Source: an uncultured Candidatus Saccharibacteria bacterium (lineage in GTDB: Bacteria; Patescibacteriota; Minisyncoccia; Phycocordibacterales; G965230995). Taken from it: 64,000 nucleotides of DNA. The DNA lies in assembly GCA_965230995.1 (NCBI GenBank), contig OZ246398.1:592213-656212 (forward strand), given 5' to 3'. Shown here one piece after another: positions 6,857 to 45,222 of this stretch. Under the pieces are notes generated by a model that saw nothing but the letters and a program-made list of their open reading frames with translations, did not search any database and was not told where the DNA came from. Position numbers and translations under genes: made by a program. The number at the start of each line of letters is the position of its first letter. The stretch's first letter is position 1.

Positions 6857-6904
6857 TCCATGTGGATAACCGAGGGGAAATGGGTGTGGTAGAATTCCTC
6901 GGGT

Positions 6905-36389: not shown

Positions 36390-36404
36390 TATGGAAAAAA
36401 TAGC
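36390..36404. repeat. 15-bp perfect direct repeat tatggaaaaaatagc, left copy.
   Basis: Identical copy at 36838-36852. Together they bracket the GC-rich element. Confidence 0.7.
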
Positions 36405-36837
36405 TAATATAAAGTATGATTTACACGGGTTCCAACACCAACGACGAAAGGAGGATACATGCACAGCCCGAATGCCTGACGAATCTCATTTCTGTATAAT
36501 GGGCCAACCACCAAAACCGACCCCACAGGCTAATTTGGGGCACGGCTACAGGGTCATGGTGGACATGTTCTTCGGAGCAAGCCTTCGCACCGGATGCCTA
36601 CCAAGTGAGTTAGGAAAAGAAGGGCGAAGTTTGTGGGTTTGCTCAATGGGAATATGCTGTTGTTCCCCCAAGGACGTACAACCCGATCAACCACGAAGTG
36701 GTAAACAACAGGTGGTAGTGATACCACGGTGTCTGGTAGACACACCCAGATGAAGTGGCTTTGCCCACATACTCTACCAAATTCCGGTGCGTCAGCAATG
36801 ACGCACCAATTTATTTATCGAGAAATAATGATTTTAA
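36405..36837 (+). ncRNA. Unclassified GC-rich structured non-coding element ending in a hairpin plus U-tract terminator.
   Basis: No credible ORF on either strand. Multiple GC stems. Terminator ggtgcgtca-gcaa-tgacgcacc plus a T-run at 36786-36818. Flanked by 15-bp direct repeats. Confidence 0.4.
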
Positions 36838-36981: not shown

Positions 36982-37054
36982 GGCCTTATCGTCTAACGGT
37001 TAGGACGAAGCCTTCTCAAGGCTTAAATCGGGGTTCGATTCCCCGTAAGGTCAC
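36982..37054 (+). tRNA. tRNA-Glu (anticodon CUC), no encoded CCA.
   Basis: Cloverleaf folded by hand. Acceptor GGCCTTA/TAAGGTC. Anticodon stem AAGCC/GGCTT with loop TTCTCAA. T-arm CGGGG-TTCGATT-CCCCG. Confidence 0.8.
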
Positions 37055-37104: not shown

Positions 37105-37410
37105 TGAACATATGGGAATCGAAAGACGGAGCCGGTATACAAGATTTTACGAAATGAAATGGAGTAAAATACTTGTCGGCGAGTCGGGGTCGCGACCTTC
37201 GTTGCGGAGATTTATCGAAGCAGAAGAGTTGTGACCGATTCCCCGTTTGAAGTGATAGCGAACAATTATACTTAGTGACTCGTGATCACAGCAATTAAAT
37301 AAATAGGAAACCTATACTGTCCATGTAATGGAAGATTTCCCGTAGGGATACATCTCCCATAACTTTAAATATGGCATTTTGGAATAATACGCAATGGAAT
37401 ATTATTATAT

Positions 37411-37638
37411 ATGCATATGCCAAGAGCAATTTATAATGATGAACATAAGGAAATTATTGAACGCTTAAAACAGGCTCGTCTTGAAGCTGATCTCGGTCAA
37501 ATTGAAGTAGCTGAAAAACTCGGCAGAACTCAGTCATATGTCTCAAAAATAGAATCGGGACAGAGACGCCTTGACGTTTTGCAACTTAAAGAGTTTGCAA
37601 AACTTTATAAAAAATCGCTAGATTTTTTCGTTAAATAA
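37411..37638 (+). CDS. XRE-family HTH regulator; probable controller (C) protein of an R-M system.
   Basis: 75-aa HTH_3 domain (QIEVAEKLGRTQSYVSKIESG). Its stop lies 2 nt before the downstream gene, the classic C-R arrangement. Confidence 0.6.
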   Translation: MHMPRAIYNDEHKEIIERLKQARLEADLGQIEVAEKLGRTQSYVSKIESGQRRLDVLQLKEFAKLYKKSLDFFVK

Positions 37639-37640
37639 TT

Positions 37641-38213
37641 ATGAAAATTTTAGAACATAAAGCAAAAGTATTTGGTCAAGAATGTAAGCTTGAACTTATG
37701 CATTTTAATAAAAATGATGGAAAGGAATGGAAAAGAATTTTTGATATTTGGAAAGAGTTAAAGCTTGGTTTGAGAGGTTATAAATCCCGTGAACCAAATA
37801 TGCCTGAGGGCTTATCAGAAGTCGCCTTTTGTCTTTGGTCGGGTTCTGCGAGATATATAAAATTAAAAGGCGCCAAGAAAGGAATAGCTGGTTCATTTGA
37901 TACTTTTAATTTAAAGTCAAACAAGGCTCAACAAATAAAAGCTTGTAGTATTGAAGATGATCTAACTTCCTTTGGACCAAAATCAAAATGGGACGATTTG
38001 TATTTTGTGGATTTTTATAACGGCGGTAAAATTGATGGTAAATTTGATATCTATTTAATTCCTAATAAATACATCAAAAATCAATCATTGAATAAGAAAG
38101 AATCTTTTACAGATCAGCAGGCACAAAAAAGACGACCTCGTTTTGGAATTAAAAAACAAATTATTACAAAATATAAAATCAAACCTCTAGCTAGTAAGGT
38201 AAAAGTTTGGTAA
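37641..38213 (+). CDS. Putative type II restriction endonuclease (hypothetical).
   Basis: Position follows the C gene and is convergent with the MTase. No clear family match. Possible degenerate D...(E/Q)xK. Confidence 0.35.
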   Translation: MKILEHKAKVFGQECKLELMHFNKNDGKEWKRIFDIWKELKLGLRGYKSREPNMPEGLSEVAFCLWSGSARYIKLKGAKKGIAGSFDTFNLKSNKAQQIKACSIEDDLTSFGPKSKWDDLYFVDFYNGGKIDGKFDIYLIPNKYIKNQSLNKKESFTDQQAQKRRPRFGIKKQIITKYKIKPLASKVKVW

Positions 38214-39791
38214 TTACTCCATTGCTTTCATCATTTGTTTTGCTACAGCTTCAACGACAGGTACACTCACAGAATTTCCAGCTTGTTTGTATAGTGCTGA
38301 GTCAGATATTTTTGGTAAAATATAATCTTTTGGAAAACCCTGTATCCTAAAGCATTCTAATGGTGTCAGCTTTCGGATGCCTTTCTTGTCCTTAATAATT
38401 GGAACATTGTGCCCACCTGTACCCATGTTTGCGGTTAATGTCGGACAAACTCCACTTTTATTTTCCCTTACATATTGCCTTCTCCATTGATAAACTTTAC
38501 CTTCCTCTTTTACTACATTTTTAAGTTTCTCAAACAATGGTTTACCGTTGTAATAATATTTTTCTGAGACATTACTCTCTAATAAATCAGTTATTTTTGT
38601 TGTTAATTTAATTGGGCTTGGAAACTCAAACCTATCTAAATATATTTTGTTCTTAAAACCAACAATATAAATTCTTTCACGATTTTGAGGAATATTTCCG
38701 TATTCCATTGTGTTTAGGACTTTTACTTTTACATGATAACCCAGGTCTTTTAATGCATCCTCAATAATTTTAAAAGTTTTTCCACCATCATGACTTTTTA
38801 GATTCTTAACATTTTCTAAAAGAAAACCTTCTGGTTTTCTTGCTTCCAAAATACGAGCAATATCAAAAAATAAGTTTCCTCTACCCTTCTCATCATTAAA
38901 CCCCTGTCTATATCCCGCAATAGAAAATGCCTGGCAAGGAAAACCACCTAAAAGAAAATCGAACTTTGGGAGATCATCTATTCCAATTTTTCTTATATCC
39001 TCGACAACCAATTTTGAATCTCTAAAATTCAGATCATAAGTATCCTTACATCGTGTTTCAAAATCGTTTGCAAAAACAGTTTTAAACCCTGCGTTTTCAA
39101 AGCCCAAGCGAATACCACCAACTCCAGCAAATAAATCTATTGTTTTAAACCCATGTTTTGTTTTCTTTTGCTCAAATTCTTTAGGTTCATTATTTGGGTT
39201 ACTAATAACCTGAATTACAACACCCCGAACCTCTACGAACTCTCTAAAAAGAGATTTCATATTTGGGTTCCTTGGTTCAAGTCTGAACCTATCTTTTTCT
39301 TTATAAAGTCTTTTAAGAGTTGCTTCATTTTCGTCAATAATTGCAACAACGGTTTGTCCATTTTCTGCAACAGATTGCTGTTTTATAACAACAATATCGC
39401 CATCAAAAATTCCGTCATCAATCATAGAATCACCCACAACACGGAGGGCATAATATCCTTCGGCTGTTTTAATTTGAGGATTGATTACAGAAACAGAGCC
39501 ATCTCTTTCTTCAATTGCTGGAAGTGGATATCCGGCTTTTATACTTCCAATTATTGGAATTTCTACAATTGACCTTATTTCTTTTTTAGGAGCTAAACTT
39601 CTAGCGGAATTTTCTGATTTTGAAAGATATCCCTTTGTCTTTAGTGAATTGATATGTTCGTGAACTGTAGATACTGCTTTTAGTTTTAGTTTTTTTCTTA
39701 TTTCCTCGATAGTGGGAGCTATACCATTTTCACCAATATATAGATTTATAAAGTCAAAGACTTGTTTTTGTTTTTTTGTAAGGCTTGGCAT
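38214..39791 (-). CDS. LexA (HTH plus S24 autoprotease) fused to a DNA cytosine-5 methyltransferase.
   Basis: LexA part, aa 1-~200: LexA DNA-binding domain, cleavage site IKAG, catalytic GDSM Ser and TLKRL Lys. MTase part, aa ~205-525: motif I DLFAGVGG, motif IV GFPCQAFS, ENV, QNRERIYIVG, RKLTPLECFRIQGFP. Single uninterrupted ORF with no internal start. Confidence 0.75.
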   Translation of the reverse strand: MPSLTKKQKQVFDFINLYIGENGIAPTIEEIRKKLKLKAVSTVHEHINSLKTKGYLSKSENSARSLAPKKEIRSIVEIPIIGSIKAGYPLPAIEERDGSVSVINPQIKTAEGYYALRVVGDSMIDDGIFDGDIVVIKQQSVAENGQTVVAIIDENEATLKRLYKEKDRFRLEPRNPNMKSLFREFVEVRGVVIQVISNPNNEPKEFEQKKTKHGFKTIDLFAGVGGIRLGFENAGFKTVFANDFETRCKDTYDLNFRDSKLVVEDIRKIGIDDLPKFDFLLGGFPCQAFSIAGYRQGFNDEKGRGNLFFDIARILEARKPEGFLLENVKNLKSHDGGKTFKIIEDALKDLGYHVKVKVLNTMEYGNIPQNRERIYIVGFKNKIYLDRFEFPSPIKLTTKITDLLESNVSEKYYYNGKPLFEKLKNVVKEEGKVYQWRRQYVRENKSGVCPTLTANMGTGGHNVPIIKDKKGIRKLTPLECFRIQGFPKDYILPKISDSALYKQAGNSVSVPVVEAVAKQMMKAME

Positions 39792-39881
39792 ATTGTATTT
39801 AAAATACTATTGAGCTACAATTATATTATAACCGAACAAAAACCGAAAAGTAAGGCTACTTATCCACAATCAAGTAAGTAT

Positions 39882-40460
39882 ATGATTTCAGAAAAAGAAT
39901 TTAAAGAAAAATTAATCACCAAATTAAATTTTATTAATTCTGGTTGGAGAGATGGTGATCTAGATTTATTTTTAGGGCCAAAGTCGGATATTATCAATGA
40001 TCAGTTAAAAGTCGCCATAGAAATTAAGGATGACACAAAATTTAATAGGAGAATGCCGACAACCTCTGGAGAAATAGTATTGAATGGAACGAATCTTTCA
40101 GAAAAAAATAGACAGTTCAAAGATGACATTAAAAGTGCCAACAAAAAATTTAAGAGTTATATTGGATACAAAACAATATTATTATTAAGAACAGAGATGA
40201 TAGATTTCTTTTCTGATATTGTAAATTACACAATTGATGGACCAAGATCATTTGCAAAGATTAATGGAGAACTAGTCTGTGCTGGTAGACCTAGCACATT
40301 TTGGTCTGGTCACGATAAAAGCACAGCAGAAGTGGGGGGAATATTATTTTGGGGAAACAGATGCACTTATAGGATAAATGAAAATCCAAATATAAATAAG
40401 AAAAGAATTATTGATAAAATTGATTTGGAAAAAATGATGAATATTAGTATTGATCTATAG
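39882..40460 (+). CDS. Hypothetical protein (possible PD-(D/E)xK nuclease) at the island edge.
   Basis: GDLDLF...(20)...AIEIKDD resembles D...ExK. Start chosen at the internal Met because the ORF-track start overlaps the MTase start. Confidence 0.35.
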   Translation: MISEKEFKEKLITKLNFINSGWRDGDLDLFLGPKSDIINDQLKVAIEIKDDTKFNRRMPTTSGEIVLNGTNLSEKNRQFKDDIKSANKKFKSYIGYKTILLLRTEMIDFFSDIVNYTIDGPRSFAKINGELVCAGRPSTFWSGHDKSTAEVGGILFWGNRCTYRINENPNINKKRIIDKIDLEKMMNISIDL

Positions 40461-44693: not shown

Positions 44694-45128
44694 TTATATC
44701 ATTCCTATATCTCCGAGCTTTTCTGCCATCTCACCTGCATCTTTCTGAATTTTTGTCTTGTATGAATTCCATTTATCTTCGTTCCAAATTTCAATTCTGT
44801 TTGCGACTCCGGCAAAGACGACTTTTGTTGCAAGACCAGCAAAGTTTCGCAAAAAGTCTGGGATGAGAATTCTACCGAGAGAGTCAACATCGATTTCAGT
44901 TGCACCAGCGAGCATAAATCTTGCGAAGCCTCGAGTATCTGCCTGACCCATTCCGAGCGATGAAATCTTTTGAGATATTTTTTTCCATTCTGATATCGGA
45001 TATATAAACAGACAGTTATCGAGACCATGTGTGACGACAATTTTTTTACCCATTTCCTTTCTGAATTTTGAAGGAAGCGAGATTCTTTTTTTATCATCAA
45101 CTGTGTGTGTATATTCTCCGATTAGCAT
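44694..45128 (-). CDS. mraZ: Transcriptional regulator MraZ.
   Basis: MLIGEYTHTVDDKKRISLPSKFR; tandem DUF-like halves. Confidence 0.9.
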   Translation of the reverse strand: MLIGEYTHTVDDKKRISLPSKFRKEMGKKIVVTHGLDNCLFIYPISEWKKISQKISSLGMGQADTRGFARFMLAGATEIDVDSLGRILIPDFLRNFAGLATKVVFAGVANRIEIWNEDKWNSYKTKIQKDAGEMAEKLGDIGMI

Positions 45129-45149
45129 TTTTTTCTTTGTATTCCACTT

Positions 45150-45222
45150 TATCCCACTTGATATATATTGTATTACATTTCATCCCACTTTACAAAACAT
45201 GTTATCCACATTTGCCCACAAA
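45150..45222 (-). promoter_or_regulatory. MraZ-box array: five direct repeats of (A)AGTGG(G/A)A on the mraZ strand, phased at about 10-21 bp.
   Basis: Plus-strand CCAC/CCCAC cores at 45154, 45163, 45184, 45206 and 45215. They lie 25-95 bp upstream of the mraZ start. Confidence 0.6.

Follow-up and report, generated by a model that had tools for sequence, protein, structure and literature searches.

A LexA repressor fused to a C5 cytosine methyltransferase in a type II restriction-modification cassette of Patescibacteria, and its possible relief by DNA damage

Introduction

Why would a cytosine DNA methyltransferase (MTase) carry a complete LexA repressor at its N-terminus? The question is raised by a single open reading frame in an uncultured Candidatus Saccharibacteria bacterium (GenBank assembly GCA_965230995.1, contig OZ246398.1), located within the 64,000-nucleotide stretch of DNA analyzed here (contig positions 592,213 to 656,212; hereafter the window, in whose numbering all coordinates are given). 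In restriction-modification (R-M) systems, methylation has to stay ahead of restriction, and we know of no mechanism by which type II systems cope with the unmodified sites that repair generates; damage-linked relief has, to our knowledge, been described for type I enzymes only. Patescibacteria are mostly uncultured; as far as we know, CRISPR is largely absent from them and their defense leans on R-M. The first-pass annotation of the window, made from the letters alone, held the LexA-MTase architecture to be undescribed. The literature searched agrees, although absence there is not proof: no description of this architecture was found, a 2025 R-M review mentions neither LexA nor S24, and a 2026 preprint on CPR methyltransferases mentions neither the fusion nor a repressor.

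Results

The fusion gene and its domains

The gene and the parts of its product map to the window as follows.

38214-39791, minus strand: LexA-S24-C5 methyltransferase fusion, the M gene of the cassette (525 aa, single ORF, ATG start)
39600-39791, minus strand: LexA winged-helix-turn-helix (wHTH) DNA-binding domain, aa 1-64 (PF01726 and AF2 model)
39531-39536, minus strand: codons of Ala86-Gly87, the predicted LexA-type self-cleavage bond (ortholog conservation)
39213-39557, minus strand: S24 autopeptidase and dimerization domain, aa 79-193, with Ser122 and Lys160 (PF00717)
39156-39203, minus strand: variable interdomain linker, aa 197-212 (low column conservation, dN/dS, pLDDT)
38229-39149, minus strand: C5 cytosine DNA methyltransferase domain, aa 215-521, of putative GCNGC specificity (PF00145, TIGR00675)

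Profile searches of both halves, as the first-pass annotation had proposed, matched LexA_DNA_bind (PF01726, aa 1-64, 2.8e-16), Peptidase_S24 (PF00717, aa 79-193, 5.1e-28) and DNA_methylase (PF00145, aa 215-521, 7.5e-93) in Pfam. Amongst the NCBIfam models, TIGR00498 (lexA equivalog) matches aa 1-198 with 172 bits (curated equivalog cut-off, 110.95 bits) and TIGR00675 (dcm) matches the MTase half with 344 bits; this half also shows similarity to M.HhaI (2e-59). The translation contains the LexA cleavage site (IKA86-G87YP) and both catalytic residues (GDS122M and ATLK160RL) in its first half, and FAGVGG, PCQ, ENV, QNRER and GNSVS in its second, placing C5 MTase motifs I (FxGxG), IV (PCQ), VI (ENV), VIII (QxRxR) and X (GNSV) in the correct order. 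These matches and residues point to a complete LexA, presumably intact in its catalysis, in frame with a C5 MTase, as had been read from the letters. An AF2 model reached a pLDDT of 38 from the single sequence and 65 with a 57-sequence alignment; the latter places the wHTH helices (6-22, 28-35 and 40-52, with the wing at 56-68; the recognition helix, aa 40-52, is VSTVHEHINSLKT) and a disordered linker (pLDDT below 50 at aa 201-212), and is too poor for the geometry of the cleavage loop.

The claim that the frame is continuous and the MTase not separately made is borne out by the 525-aa translation, which has no in-frame ATG between Met178 and Met362, leaving the MTase without an ATG start of its own. 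The expected outcome of self-cleavage, namely that a DNA-binding and dimerization module would be severed from the MTase, stands in part. The predicted cut at Ala86-Gly87 would release the wHTH (aa 1-86), but the S24 domain, which provides dimerization and protease activity, would stay with the MTase, so that the severed part would be the winged HTH only.

Conservation and distribution

A search for the same fusion elsewhere, suggested by the earlier annotation, found relatives encoded in 487 species-representative genomes, and the same three Pfam domains recur, in ~525 aa, in at least 120 sequence clusters (90% identity; from NCBI, JGI, ENA and Logan assemblies). All 78 independent full-length orthologs are uninterrupted and fused, rather than split into the two separate genes that the annotation had considered for the homologs. 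The fusion is a real gene that is widespread in Patescibacteria. Amongst the 78 orthologs, Ser122, Lys160 and the catalytic MTase motifs are invariant, Ala86 is present in all, and Gly87 in 77; in 60 representatives of the wider LexA clade described below, the cleavage-site Ala is found in 59 and the Gly in 60, with Ala-Gly, Ser and Lys kept in 59-60. Estimates of dN/dS, for which dS is saturated, stand at 0.05 in the MTase domain, 0.08 in the wHTH, 0.10 in S24, 0.17 in the hinge/cleavage segment and 0.39 in the linker; by these estimates, every domain of the fusion is under purifying selection. The fusion is 80-90% identical between loci, compared with 46-53% for the adjacent murF and PBP, and two fusion cassettes (L012 and L036) are present on one contig. 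A phage origin was rejected, as IMG/VR contains no fusion, only an MTase that is unfused and 53% identical.

The restriction-modification cassette

The fusion is the M gene of a compact (~2.5 kb) type II R-M cassette, whose other members are encoded on the opposite strand.

37641-38213, plus strand: Bsp6I-family restriction endonuclease (R), 190 aa (PF09504, 2.8e-10, 40.6 bits)
37411-37638, plus strand: C (controller) protein, a 75-aa HTH_3 protein, directly upstream of R (PF01381, 2.6e-12)
37380-37401, plus strand: TGGAATA-N8-TGGAATA direct repeat shortly before the C gene, a candidate C-box (conserved block)

The R gene, identified with a model (RE_Bsp6I, PF09504) whose cut-off is 25 bits, is convergent with the M gene and abuts its stop codon. 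A Bsp6I-family endonuclease occupies the same position in 28 of 73 loci, and all 73 loci with sufficient downstream DNA have a convergent ORF directly against the MTase stop. These ORFs belong to at least eight unrelated families (including Bsp6I, NgoFVII_C and PD-(D/E)XK), such that the same MTase, 79-96% identical over its domain, is paired with at least eight unrelated endonuclease families. The C gene is kept together with R in ~25 loci. The block TATATGGCAATTTGGAATAATACACAATGGAATA upstream of it is conserved in 22 loci, with similarity ending just upstream of the block, and the left edge of the cassette lies at ~37361, at the candidate C-box, which appears to be a direct repeat and not a canonical inverted-repeat C-box. 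A simple scan listed no terminator-like sites on the strand of M (minus); the plus-strand sites fall within the coding region of M or follow a tRNA, none being at the M/R junction. Convergent read-through at this junction is possible. The link to R-M balance that the first-pass annotation had raised is made plausible by the position of the fusion in a cassette of C, R and M.

From the frequencies of candidate sites, we infer GCNGC as the specificity of this C5 MTase. Amongst all 16 XYNY'X' palindromes, GCNGC shows the strongest depletion in the window (31 observed versus 87-91 expected; O/E 0.34-0.36), and it is also the most depleted in 0.89 Mb of flanks of fusion-bearing genomes (O/E 0.59, order-3 model); in control loci, O/E is 1.21 under the first-order model (not depleted) and 0.81 under order 3. 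This avoidance, like the Bsp6I-family endonuclease, fits Bsp6I and Fnu4HI (GCNGC), and an NgoFVII-type DNA-binding domain (NgoFVII, GCSGC) occurs in other orthologous cassettes; unlike those enzymes, the specificity is here a putative one and the MTase has its eight or more endonuclease partners. There are no GCNGC sites between 33754 and 42015, so the fusion promoter is not a methylation target, and methylation-sensitive autoregulation was ruled out for this GCNGC-free promoter region.

Promoter, candidate operator and other upstream elements

Four elements were delimited upstream of the fusion.

39825-39853, minus strand: putative sigma-70-type promoter of the fusion (-35 TTACTT at 39848-39853, -10 TATAAT at 39825-39830)
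39832-39847, minus strand: 11-bp-period direct repeat TTCGG-N6-TTCGG, the LexA module's candidate operator (conservation)
39860-39868, minus strand: TGTGGATAA box, the reverse complement of the DnaA-box consensus TTATCCACA (exact match)
39795-39807, minus strand: palindrome GTATTT-T-AAATAC in the 5' UTR, noted earlier (in the window, not conserved)

The 17-nt promoter spacer consists of the candidate operator plus a T. A consensus promoter scan missed this promoter because the -35 of the window (TTACTT) is weak; orthologous loci keep a TATAAT/TATACT -10 and a -35 resembling TTGnnn. The succession of TTCGG-N6-TTCGG, T and TATAAT, with an invariant spacer, is found in 78 of 79 loci. The layout is not universal, as the operator faces a divergent gene in L080 and lies downstream of the -10 in L085. 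The window contains a single exact copy of the repeat, and 86 of the 88 copies in the 1.2 Mb scanned (~10 kb either side of the cassettes) lie upstream of genes of the fusion's LexA clade. This repeat scan of 1.2 Mb detected no regulon beyond the fusion's own promoter, no recA or uvr genes occur in the window or the ~10 kb cassette flanks, and no second lexA was found in the window. The palindrome, which had been proposed as the self-operator, exists but is missing from 71 orthologous upstream regions, and it is probably not an operator. The TGTGGATAA box marks where the conserved cassette ends on the right, lies upstream of most fusion promoters regardless of MTase class, and is present in 93 copies, compared with 12.9 +/- 7.9 for shuffled 9-mers.

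A wider clade of LexA modules

Rather than being an isolated case, the architecture belongs to a large LexA clade that is joined to every DNA-MTase class (C5, N6_N4, D12 (Dam-type) and Eco57I/N6_Mtase/TaqI_C). In most loci of the other classes, the LexA-M gene is followed by a convergent R gene (e.g., of the Tsp45I, Alw26I, EcoRII-C or HindIII families), and a C gene is present in some. Most promoters of the clade carry an 11-bp-period direct repeat abutting the -10. Residue 45 of the recognition helix varies together with the repeat over 14 promoters that are not phylogenetically independent, being E or Q in 10/10 cases with TCGG repeats and F or Y in 4/4 cases with TTTC[T/C/G]A repeats. The LexA module of the clade appears occasionally to stand alone, ahead of a DpnI-type enzyme, and one possible unfused case was seen in another MTase class.

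Discussion

Comparison with known systems

In the type II enzymes M.SsoII, M.Ecl18kI and M.EcoRII, an N-terminal repressor region is joined to a C5 MTase (PMC3978073, PMC2760811, PMC12707154). The fusion resembles this family in its working, with a DNA-binding region at the N-terminus of a C5 MTase, an operator (here a candidate) in its own promoter and feedback by the methylase (here predicted), but it is not a member. The SsoII-type region is an HTH of ~70 aa without a protease, whereas the fusion has a LexA of ~200 aa with an intact self-cleavage site; the repeat is direct, has an 11-bp period and lies within the -35/-10 spacer; R and M are convergent here (divergent in SsoII) and accompanied by a C protein; and the LexA module is also found on N4/N6, Dam-type and gamma-class MTases.

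The LexA of Alphaproteobacteria binds the direct repeat GTTC-N7-GTTC. The repeat of the fusion has the same 11-bp period and TTC core, and the copy in L087 reads exactly GTTC-N7-GTTC. Like LexA itself, the fusion has the full set of domains, the cleavage bond, the catalytic dyad and a promoter predicted to be autoregulated. It differs in being covalently joined to an enzyme, in having a repeat with no detected regulon past its own promoter (1.2 Mb), in residing in an R-M cassette of varying genomic context rather than at a housekeeping locus, and in coexisting with another LexA-like gene in some genomes. The candidate operator of the fusion may cross-talk with the housekeeping SOS regulon of its hosts. 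The LexA motif of Patescibacteria was reportedly defined by Sanchez-Osuna et al. in 2017. Direct-repeat LexA boxes are treated as an accepted phenomenon in PMC7739468, which cites the Patescibacteria study; LexA proteins of this group thus also count among those that bind direct repeats.

Amongst mobile elements, lambda and SXT encode cleavable S24-type repressors (CI and SetR, respectively). Defense systems have DNA-damage-responsive regulators of the WYL/BrxR type (PMC9122589). These share with the fusion a selfish or defense cassette that has its own damage-sensing repressor, independent of the host regulon. Theirs are separate proteins controlling lysis, transfer or whole defense operons, whereas the sensor here would lie within the modification enzyme and apparently controls that gene only.

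Proposed mechanism

We favor, as moderately likely, an SsoII-like autorepression that RecA* could relieve, resulting in DNA-damage-inducible modification; the methylase probably represses its own promoter, and DNA damage would lift the repression. As conservation and covariation suggest, the LexA module would dimerize via S24 and bind TTCGG-N6-TTCGG, and since this operator takes up the entire -35/-10 spacer of 17 bp, the concentration of the methylase would set its own transcription. The logic would match that of the repressor-bearing MTases of SsoII, Ecl18kI and EcoRII, with a different repressor fold. The winged HTH (aa 1-86) would then be cut off under the action of RecA-ssDNA filaments, or of some other factor that induces the cleavable conformation, a step suggested by the invariant catalytic residues together with established LexA biochemistry. 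The remaining S24-MTase fragment should be catalytically competent and unable to repress, the promoter would open, and methylation capacity would rise for as long as the damage persists. No recA gene lies in the window or the loci, and the presence of RecA in Patescibacteria hosts is therefore taken from published general knowledge. The fragments of E. coli LexA are degraded after cleavage, so the predicted effect could also be reversed.

The payoff of such a switch, more speculatively, would be a type II form of 'restriction alleviation' that guards unmethylated GCNGC sites arising from repair, and a closed feedback loop in which breaks from self-restriction raise the antidote; stronger convergent transcription of M into the abutting R gene might damp R as well. 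In type I systems, restriction is alleviated after DNA damage by ClpXP degrading HsdR (PMC12707154, PMC11109961). The proposed purpose is the same, i.e., no self-restriction at unmodified sites born of repair, but the proposed means is up-regulation of M through self-cleavage of a repressor and not proteolysis of R.

Alternative explanations

The strongest alternative is plain SsoII-type autoregulation, in which LexA acts as a dimeric DNA-binding unit and cleavage has no role, or one in turnover only, with no coupling to damage. Autoregulation alone accounts for the position of the operator, which fills the spacer, and for the distribution of the repeat, which occurs almost only upstream of LexA-clade genes; direct repeats need a dimer, which S24 supplies, and the window and loci have no RecA or SOS gene nearby. 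We still regard this alternative as unlikely, though worth keeping in view, since a domain retained for dimerization only would be free to lose its catalytic residues, whereas Ala-Gly, Ser and Lys are essentially invariant (77-78 of 78 orthologs and 59-60 of 60 clade representatives) and the hinge/cleavage segment has a dN/dS of 0.17 (dS saturated).

Cleavage could also work in the opposite direction, as a damage-triggered suicide switch that destabilizes the methylase 'antitoxin', such that, upon heavy DNA damage or a phage attack, modification falls and the endonuclease kills the cell (abortive infection or post-segregational killing). The proteolysis of E. coli LexA fragments after cleavage would agree with this, and the cleaved N-terminal domain is predicted to end in -AA, resembling a ClpX tag, in 55 of 78 orthologs. 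R-M pairs are known to act as toxin-antitoxin modules that lead to SOS when unbalanced (PMC3874152). The -AA end, however, sits on the released DNA-binding fragment and not on the MTase, cleavage would also derepress the promoter and thus increase synthesis, and methyl groups already placed outlast the enzyme, all of which make a suicide switch decidedly improbable.

There is very little probability that the fusion is the general SOS repressor of its host, with the MTase as a passenger domain. Its LexA half passes the NCBIfam lexA equivalog cut-off, and databases label the fusion 'transcriptional repressor LexA', but the operator repeat is nearly confined to LexA-clade promoters over 1.2 Mb and a restriction gene always accompanies the fusion. 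Separate LexA-like (HTH plus S24) genes lie less than 10 kb away in L040, L063 and L072 (the one in L040 being a full-length 205-aa protein with another recognition helix and upstream sequence), a longer S24-domain protein lies less than 10 kb from the fusion in L053, L012 and L036 are two fusion cassettes on one contig, and the 80-90% identity of the fusion contrasts with the 46-53% of its murF and PBP neighbors. An assembly or frameshift artifact merging two genes, which the first-pass annotation had wished to see excluded, has in its favor nothing beyond the general risk of artificial fusions in MAGs and is practically eliminated by the 78 intact orthologs and the recurrence of the architecture in at least 120 clusters (NCBI, JGI, ENA and Logan) and 487 species-level genomes.

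Implications

Damage-relievable autorepression, the reading favored here for the fusion, might be one instance of a general modular wiring of R-M to DNA damage in Patescibacteria, which we put forward tentatively and at somewhat less than an even chance. A clade of self-cleaving LexA modules fused to MTases would act on 11-bp-period repeats of its own; a residue-45 code, with E/Q45 reading TCGG and F/Y45 reading TTTC[T/C/G]A, would keep co-resident systems insulated; and cleavage with RecA*, arising from repair or from the system's own endonuclease cutting under-methylated DNA, would boost methylation. If true, this wiring would constitute a self-restriction sensor and the first type II 'restriction alleviation' mechanism.

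At the level of the single gene, an SOS sensor built into a methylase would, if true, tie DNA damage, self-restriction and modification together directly. The clade also offers a natural family of compact repressor/operator pairs, predicted to be autoregulated and maybe orthogonal, that come with a simple candidate specificity code. Finally, the fusion exposes an annotation problem, in that many database entries for such proteins are labeled just 'LexA' or just 'methylase'.

The LexA-methyltransferase fusion

The first-pass annotation had read one ORF of the window as a complete LexA repressor joined in frame to a cytosine-5 (C5) DNA methyltransferase, and the continuous ORF, the Pfam matches in both halves, the NCBIfam models and the motifs all bear this out.

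38214-39791 (-): LexA-methyltransferase fusion gene, a single ORF of 525 aa with an ATG start
aa 1-64 of the fusion: LexA_DNA_bind (Pfam, 2.8e-16)
aa 79-193 of the fusion: Peptidase_S24 (Pfam, 5.1e-28)
aa 215-521 of the fusion: DNA_methylase (Pfam, 7.5e-93)

Among the NCBIfam models, the lexA equivalog gives 172 bits for aa 1-198 (cut-off 111) and dcm gives 344 bits. The nearest solved structures are M.HhaI (2e-59, aa 210-518), Thermotoga LexA (9e-29), and E. coli LexA (about 1e-25, full length). The scissile Ala86-Gly87 bond, Ser122, Lys160 and the full set of C5 methyltransferase motifs are present, and the translation contains no in-frame ATG between Met178 and Met362. An AlphaFold model built from the alignment (pLDDT 65) places three helices of the winged helix-turn-helix (wHTH), with aa 40-52 as the recognition helix, and leaves the interdomain linker disordered.

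A collection of 5.8 billion proteins was searched with the fusion, and the best 120 clusters listed, drawn from independent assembly sources (NCBI, JGI, ENA, and Logan), share 79-93% identity, a length of about 525 aa, and all three domains. Relatives are encoded by 487 genomes (GTDB species representatives); the titles of 80 loci fetched from these are nearly all Patescibacteria (e.g., Nomura-, Vogel-, Giovannoni-, Moran-, Falkow-, Uhr-, Zambryskii-, Taylor-, and Staskawicz-bacteria, Paceibacterota, and many with the generic label Saccharibacteria), while three name other phyla. Across the 78 full-length orthologs, Ala86, Ser122, and Lys160 are invariant (78/78 each), Gly87 is retained in 77, every methyltransferase catalytic motif is invariant, and drift is limited to the linker (aa about 197-212). 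Pairwise dN/dS, calculated with saturated dS, is 0.08 for the wHTH, 0.17 for the hinge and cleavage region, 0.10 for S24, 0.39 for the linker, and 0.05 for the methyltransferase. The 120 listed clusters, 487 genomes, and 78 full-length orthologs rule out an artefact: the fusion is a genuine gene under selection.

The restriction-modification cassette

The fusion is the methyltransferase (M) gene of a compact restriction-modification (R-M) cassette with two further genes.

Adjoining the methyltransferase stop, convergent: Bsp6I-family endonuclease (R), 190 aa (PF09504, 40.6 bits)
Preceding the endonuclease gene: controller (C) protein, HTH_3, 75 aa

DNA similarity to other loci spans about 37350 to about 39875 and ends sharply on each side, at a conserved block upstream of the C gene with the repeat TGGAATA-N8-TGGAATA on the left and at a TGTGGATAA box on the right. 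GCNGC, the Bsp6I/Fnu4HI site, occurs 31 times in the window, where 86-91 would be expected. First-order and third-order models both place it lowest among the 16 XYNY'X' palindromes, and depletion extends to each of the four central bases. It is again lowest in the flanks of fusion-bearing genomes (0.89 Mb; O/E 0.59, third-order model); loci with other fusion classes give 1.21 under the first-order model (not depleted) and 0.81 at order 3.

A convergent ORF lies within 80 nt of the methyltransferase stop in all 73 loci with sufficient downstream DNA. These ORFs, putative endonucleases, fall into at least eight mutually unrelated families (Bsp6I-like in 28 loci, NgoFVII_C-containing, PD-(D/E)XK, and five without a Pfam match), all paired with one methyltransferase (79-96% identity over its domain), so that the methylase appears to be the constant part of the cassette while the endonuclease gene next to it is swapped. 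Such sequence comparisons suggest that R is often replaced behind a fixed M. Very close orthologs differ in R (Bsp6I type in L011 versus a 361-aa unknown type in L002). The four loci with murF and the PBP gene adjacent (L003, L004, L024, and L032) carry fusions 80-90% identical to the window copy, and their murF and PBP genes are 46-53% identical to those of the window. The Vogelbacteria contig CAIRHC010000009.1 holds two C5 fusion cassettes (L012 and L036) with different endonuclease families and TTCGG operators at both, so the copies could cross-regulate.

About 300 nt left of the cassette lies tRNA-Glu(CTC) (36982-37054 (+)); 11 nt of its 3' end (CGATTCCCCGT) are repeated at about 37238 (37234-37250), perhaps a scar left when an element integrated at this tRNA in the past. 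A non-coding stretch of about 400 nt (about 36400-36810 (+); GC 0.46-0.49 versus 0.36 for the window) terminates in the hairpin GGTGCGTCAGCAATGACGCACC. Rfam gives no match even at E <= 0.1 and ARAGORN no tmRNA; the stretch probably corresponds to a structured RNA outside the known classes. Neither Pfam nor NCBIfam matches the ORF of about 190-230 aa that separates the cassette from murF (39882-40460 (+)), and the other loci contain no relatives; its N-terminal tblastn "homology" stems solely from the antisense strand of the conserved promoter of the fusion.

Promoter and candidate operator

A near-palindrome (39795-39807) annotated initially as a candidate self-operator is not conserved in orthologous promoters. 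The layout found in nearly all orthologs is TGTGGATAAC, a TTGnnn-like -35, TTCGG-N6-TTCGG, T, and TATAAT/TATACT, with the direct repeat about 40 nt upstream of the ATG and its 6-nt spacer invariant in 78 of 79 loci.

39832-39847: candidate operator TTCGG-N6-TTCGG, exactly filling the 17-nt spacer from TTACTT to TATAAT

This is the sole exact copy in the 64 kb. Across the fetched loci (1.22 Mb), T[TA]CGG-N6-T[TA]CGG occurs 88 times, and in 86 of these cases the gene immediately downstream belongs to this LexA clade. Direct-repeat LexA boxes are an accepted phenomenon, reported for Patescibacteria (PMC7739468). Only one ortholog, in L080 (9860-10000), lacks the repeat in its usual orientation; there the operator and the TGTGGATAA box point towards a divergent gene of 229 aa without assigned function.

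Read on the opposite strand, the TGTGGATAA(C) box matches the DnaA-box consensus TTATCCACA exactly. In fusion promoters of all methyltransferase classes it precedes the -35 by a few nt. Copies occur in the window (39860-39868 (-), 45202-45210 (-), and 6861-6869 (+)) and elsewhere (L024 906; L055 2886; L027 5030; L087 around 1040-1113, in both orientations), including upstream of mraZ in two genomes and of several other promoter-like sites. Loci and window together hold 93 copies versus 12.9 +/- 7.9 for shuffled 9-mers, an excess stemming mostly from fusion promoters; the sole Omnitrophota example lacks the box. Possible roles are those of a DnaA site, a lineage-specific promoter element, or a cassette boundary. 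Repeated AGTGGGAT / AGTGGAAT units (45130-45200 (-)), upstream of a 144-aa gene (44694-45128) that is the first of the PBP-murF (cell-wall synthesis) cluster, look like MraZ-type operator repeats.

LexA fusions to other methyltransferases

When the LexA part alone was searched against 1.84 billion 50%-identity representatives, 50 of the best 62 matches (E <= 1e-40) were longer than free LexA, 37 of them having at least 400 aa; below this set, ordinary LexAs of about 200 aa predominate. The extensions are DNA methyltransferases of every class: N6_N4_Mtase (the largest group, 30 representatives), Eco57I/N6_Mtase/TaqI_C, D12 (Dam-type), C5, and one C5 plus Eco57I double enzyme. By these domain matches, the LexA-methyltransferase fusion is a general pattern beyond the C5 class. 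In most retrieved contigs the fusion, sometimes followed by a second methyltransferase, is convergent with a restriction gene (Tsp45I, Alw26I, EcoRII-C, HindIII family, or without a family match), often with an HTH_3 C gene as well. Organisms, where the source gives one, are Patescibacteria and one Omnitrophota, and database labels read "transcriptional repressor LexA", "DNA adenine methylase", or "hypothetical protein".

Of 60 clade representatives, 59-60 retain the cleavage bond and the dyad. Most promoters carry a direct repeat of 11-bp period abutting the -10, and its sequence covaries with recognition-helix residue 45: TCGG repeats accompany E or Q (10/10 promoters, from four methyltransferase classes and from standalone genes), and TTTC[T/C/G]A repeats accompany F or Y (4/4).

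A standalone clade LexA (213 aa, 49% identical to the window LexA half) precedes a methyl-dependent endonuclease of the DpnI family by 15 nt (L087 1125-2551, L088 743-2169), the LexA promoter carrying GTTCGGT-N4-GTTCGGT and two TTATCCACA boxes. As an ImmR/ImmA-like or CapH/CapP-like pair, an XRE-type HTH gene and a Peptidase_M78 gene in L081 (1978-2800), divergent from the adjoining LexA-N6_N4 fusion, represent a further type of damage-responsive regulator. Three NCBI MAGs contribute members annotated as "DNA adenine methylase" of 338 aa to the cluster of one LexA-Dam-type fusion (P0130; >=90% identity); these members, either late start calls or genuine LexA-less versions, bear on the frequency of LexA-module loss.

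Regulation by the LexA module

The best supported reading is autorepression of the fusion promoter by the LexA module, which would make the methylase level self-limiting. The SsoII/Ecl18kI/EcoRII repressor-methyltransferases of the R-M literature are a functional match to this proposed autorepression; relative to the SsoII type, the fusion adds a repressor predicted to be self-cleaving, with catalytic residues all under selection. By analogy with LexA, activated RecA (RecA*) would cut off the wHTH (aa 1-86). The earlier proposal that cleavage severs the DNA-binding/dimerisation module from the methyltransferase would thus hold for the wHTH, but the S24 domain would remain joined to the enzyme. 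Without the wHTH the promoter would be released from repression, and methylation would increase while the DNA is damaged. A type II system would thereby gain a form of restriction alleviation, as well as feedback from self-restriction breaks.

Autoregulation alone, in which cleavage of this conserved bond has no physiological role, seems unlikely, and a damage-triggered loss of the methylase as antidote is quite improbable. That the fusion is the host's general LexA is disfavoured to the point of being very improbable, because the operator is, in the 1.22 Mb of fetched loci, almost confined to promoters of this LexA clade's genes, two cassettes can occupy one contig, and within 10 kb there are separate LexA-like genes in L040 (with a different helix and different upstream sequence), L063, and L072, and a longer S24-domain protein in L053.

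Relation to known systems

Repressor-methyltransferases, cleavable S24 repressors of mobile elements, and direct-repeat LexA boxes are known already; their combination, and its breadth, appear undescribed. Full-text literature searches found no description of a LexA/S24-methyltransferase fusion, a 2025 R-M review covering "dual function MTase repressors" does not mention LexA or S24, and a 2026 preprint on CPR methyltransferases is silent on both fusion and repressor. The hypothesis of a damage-responsive methylase lends itself readily to testing and would close a real gap in what is known of R-M biology.
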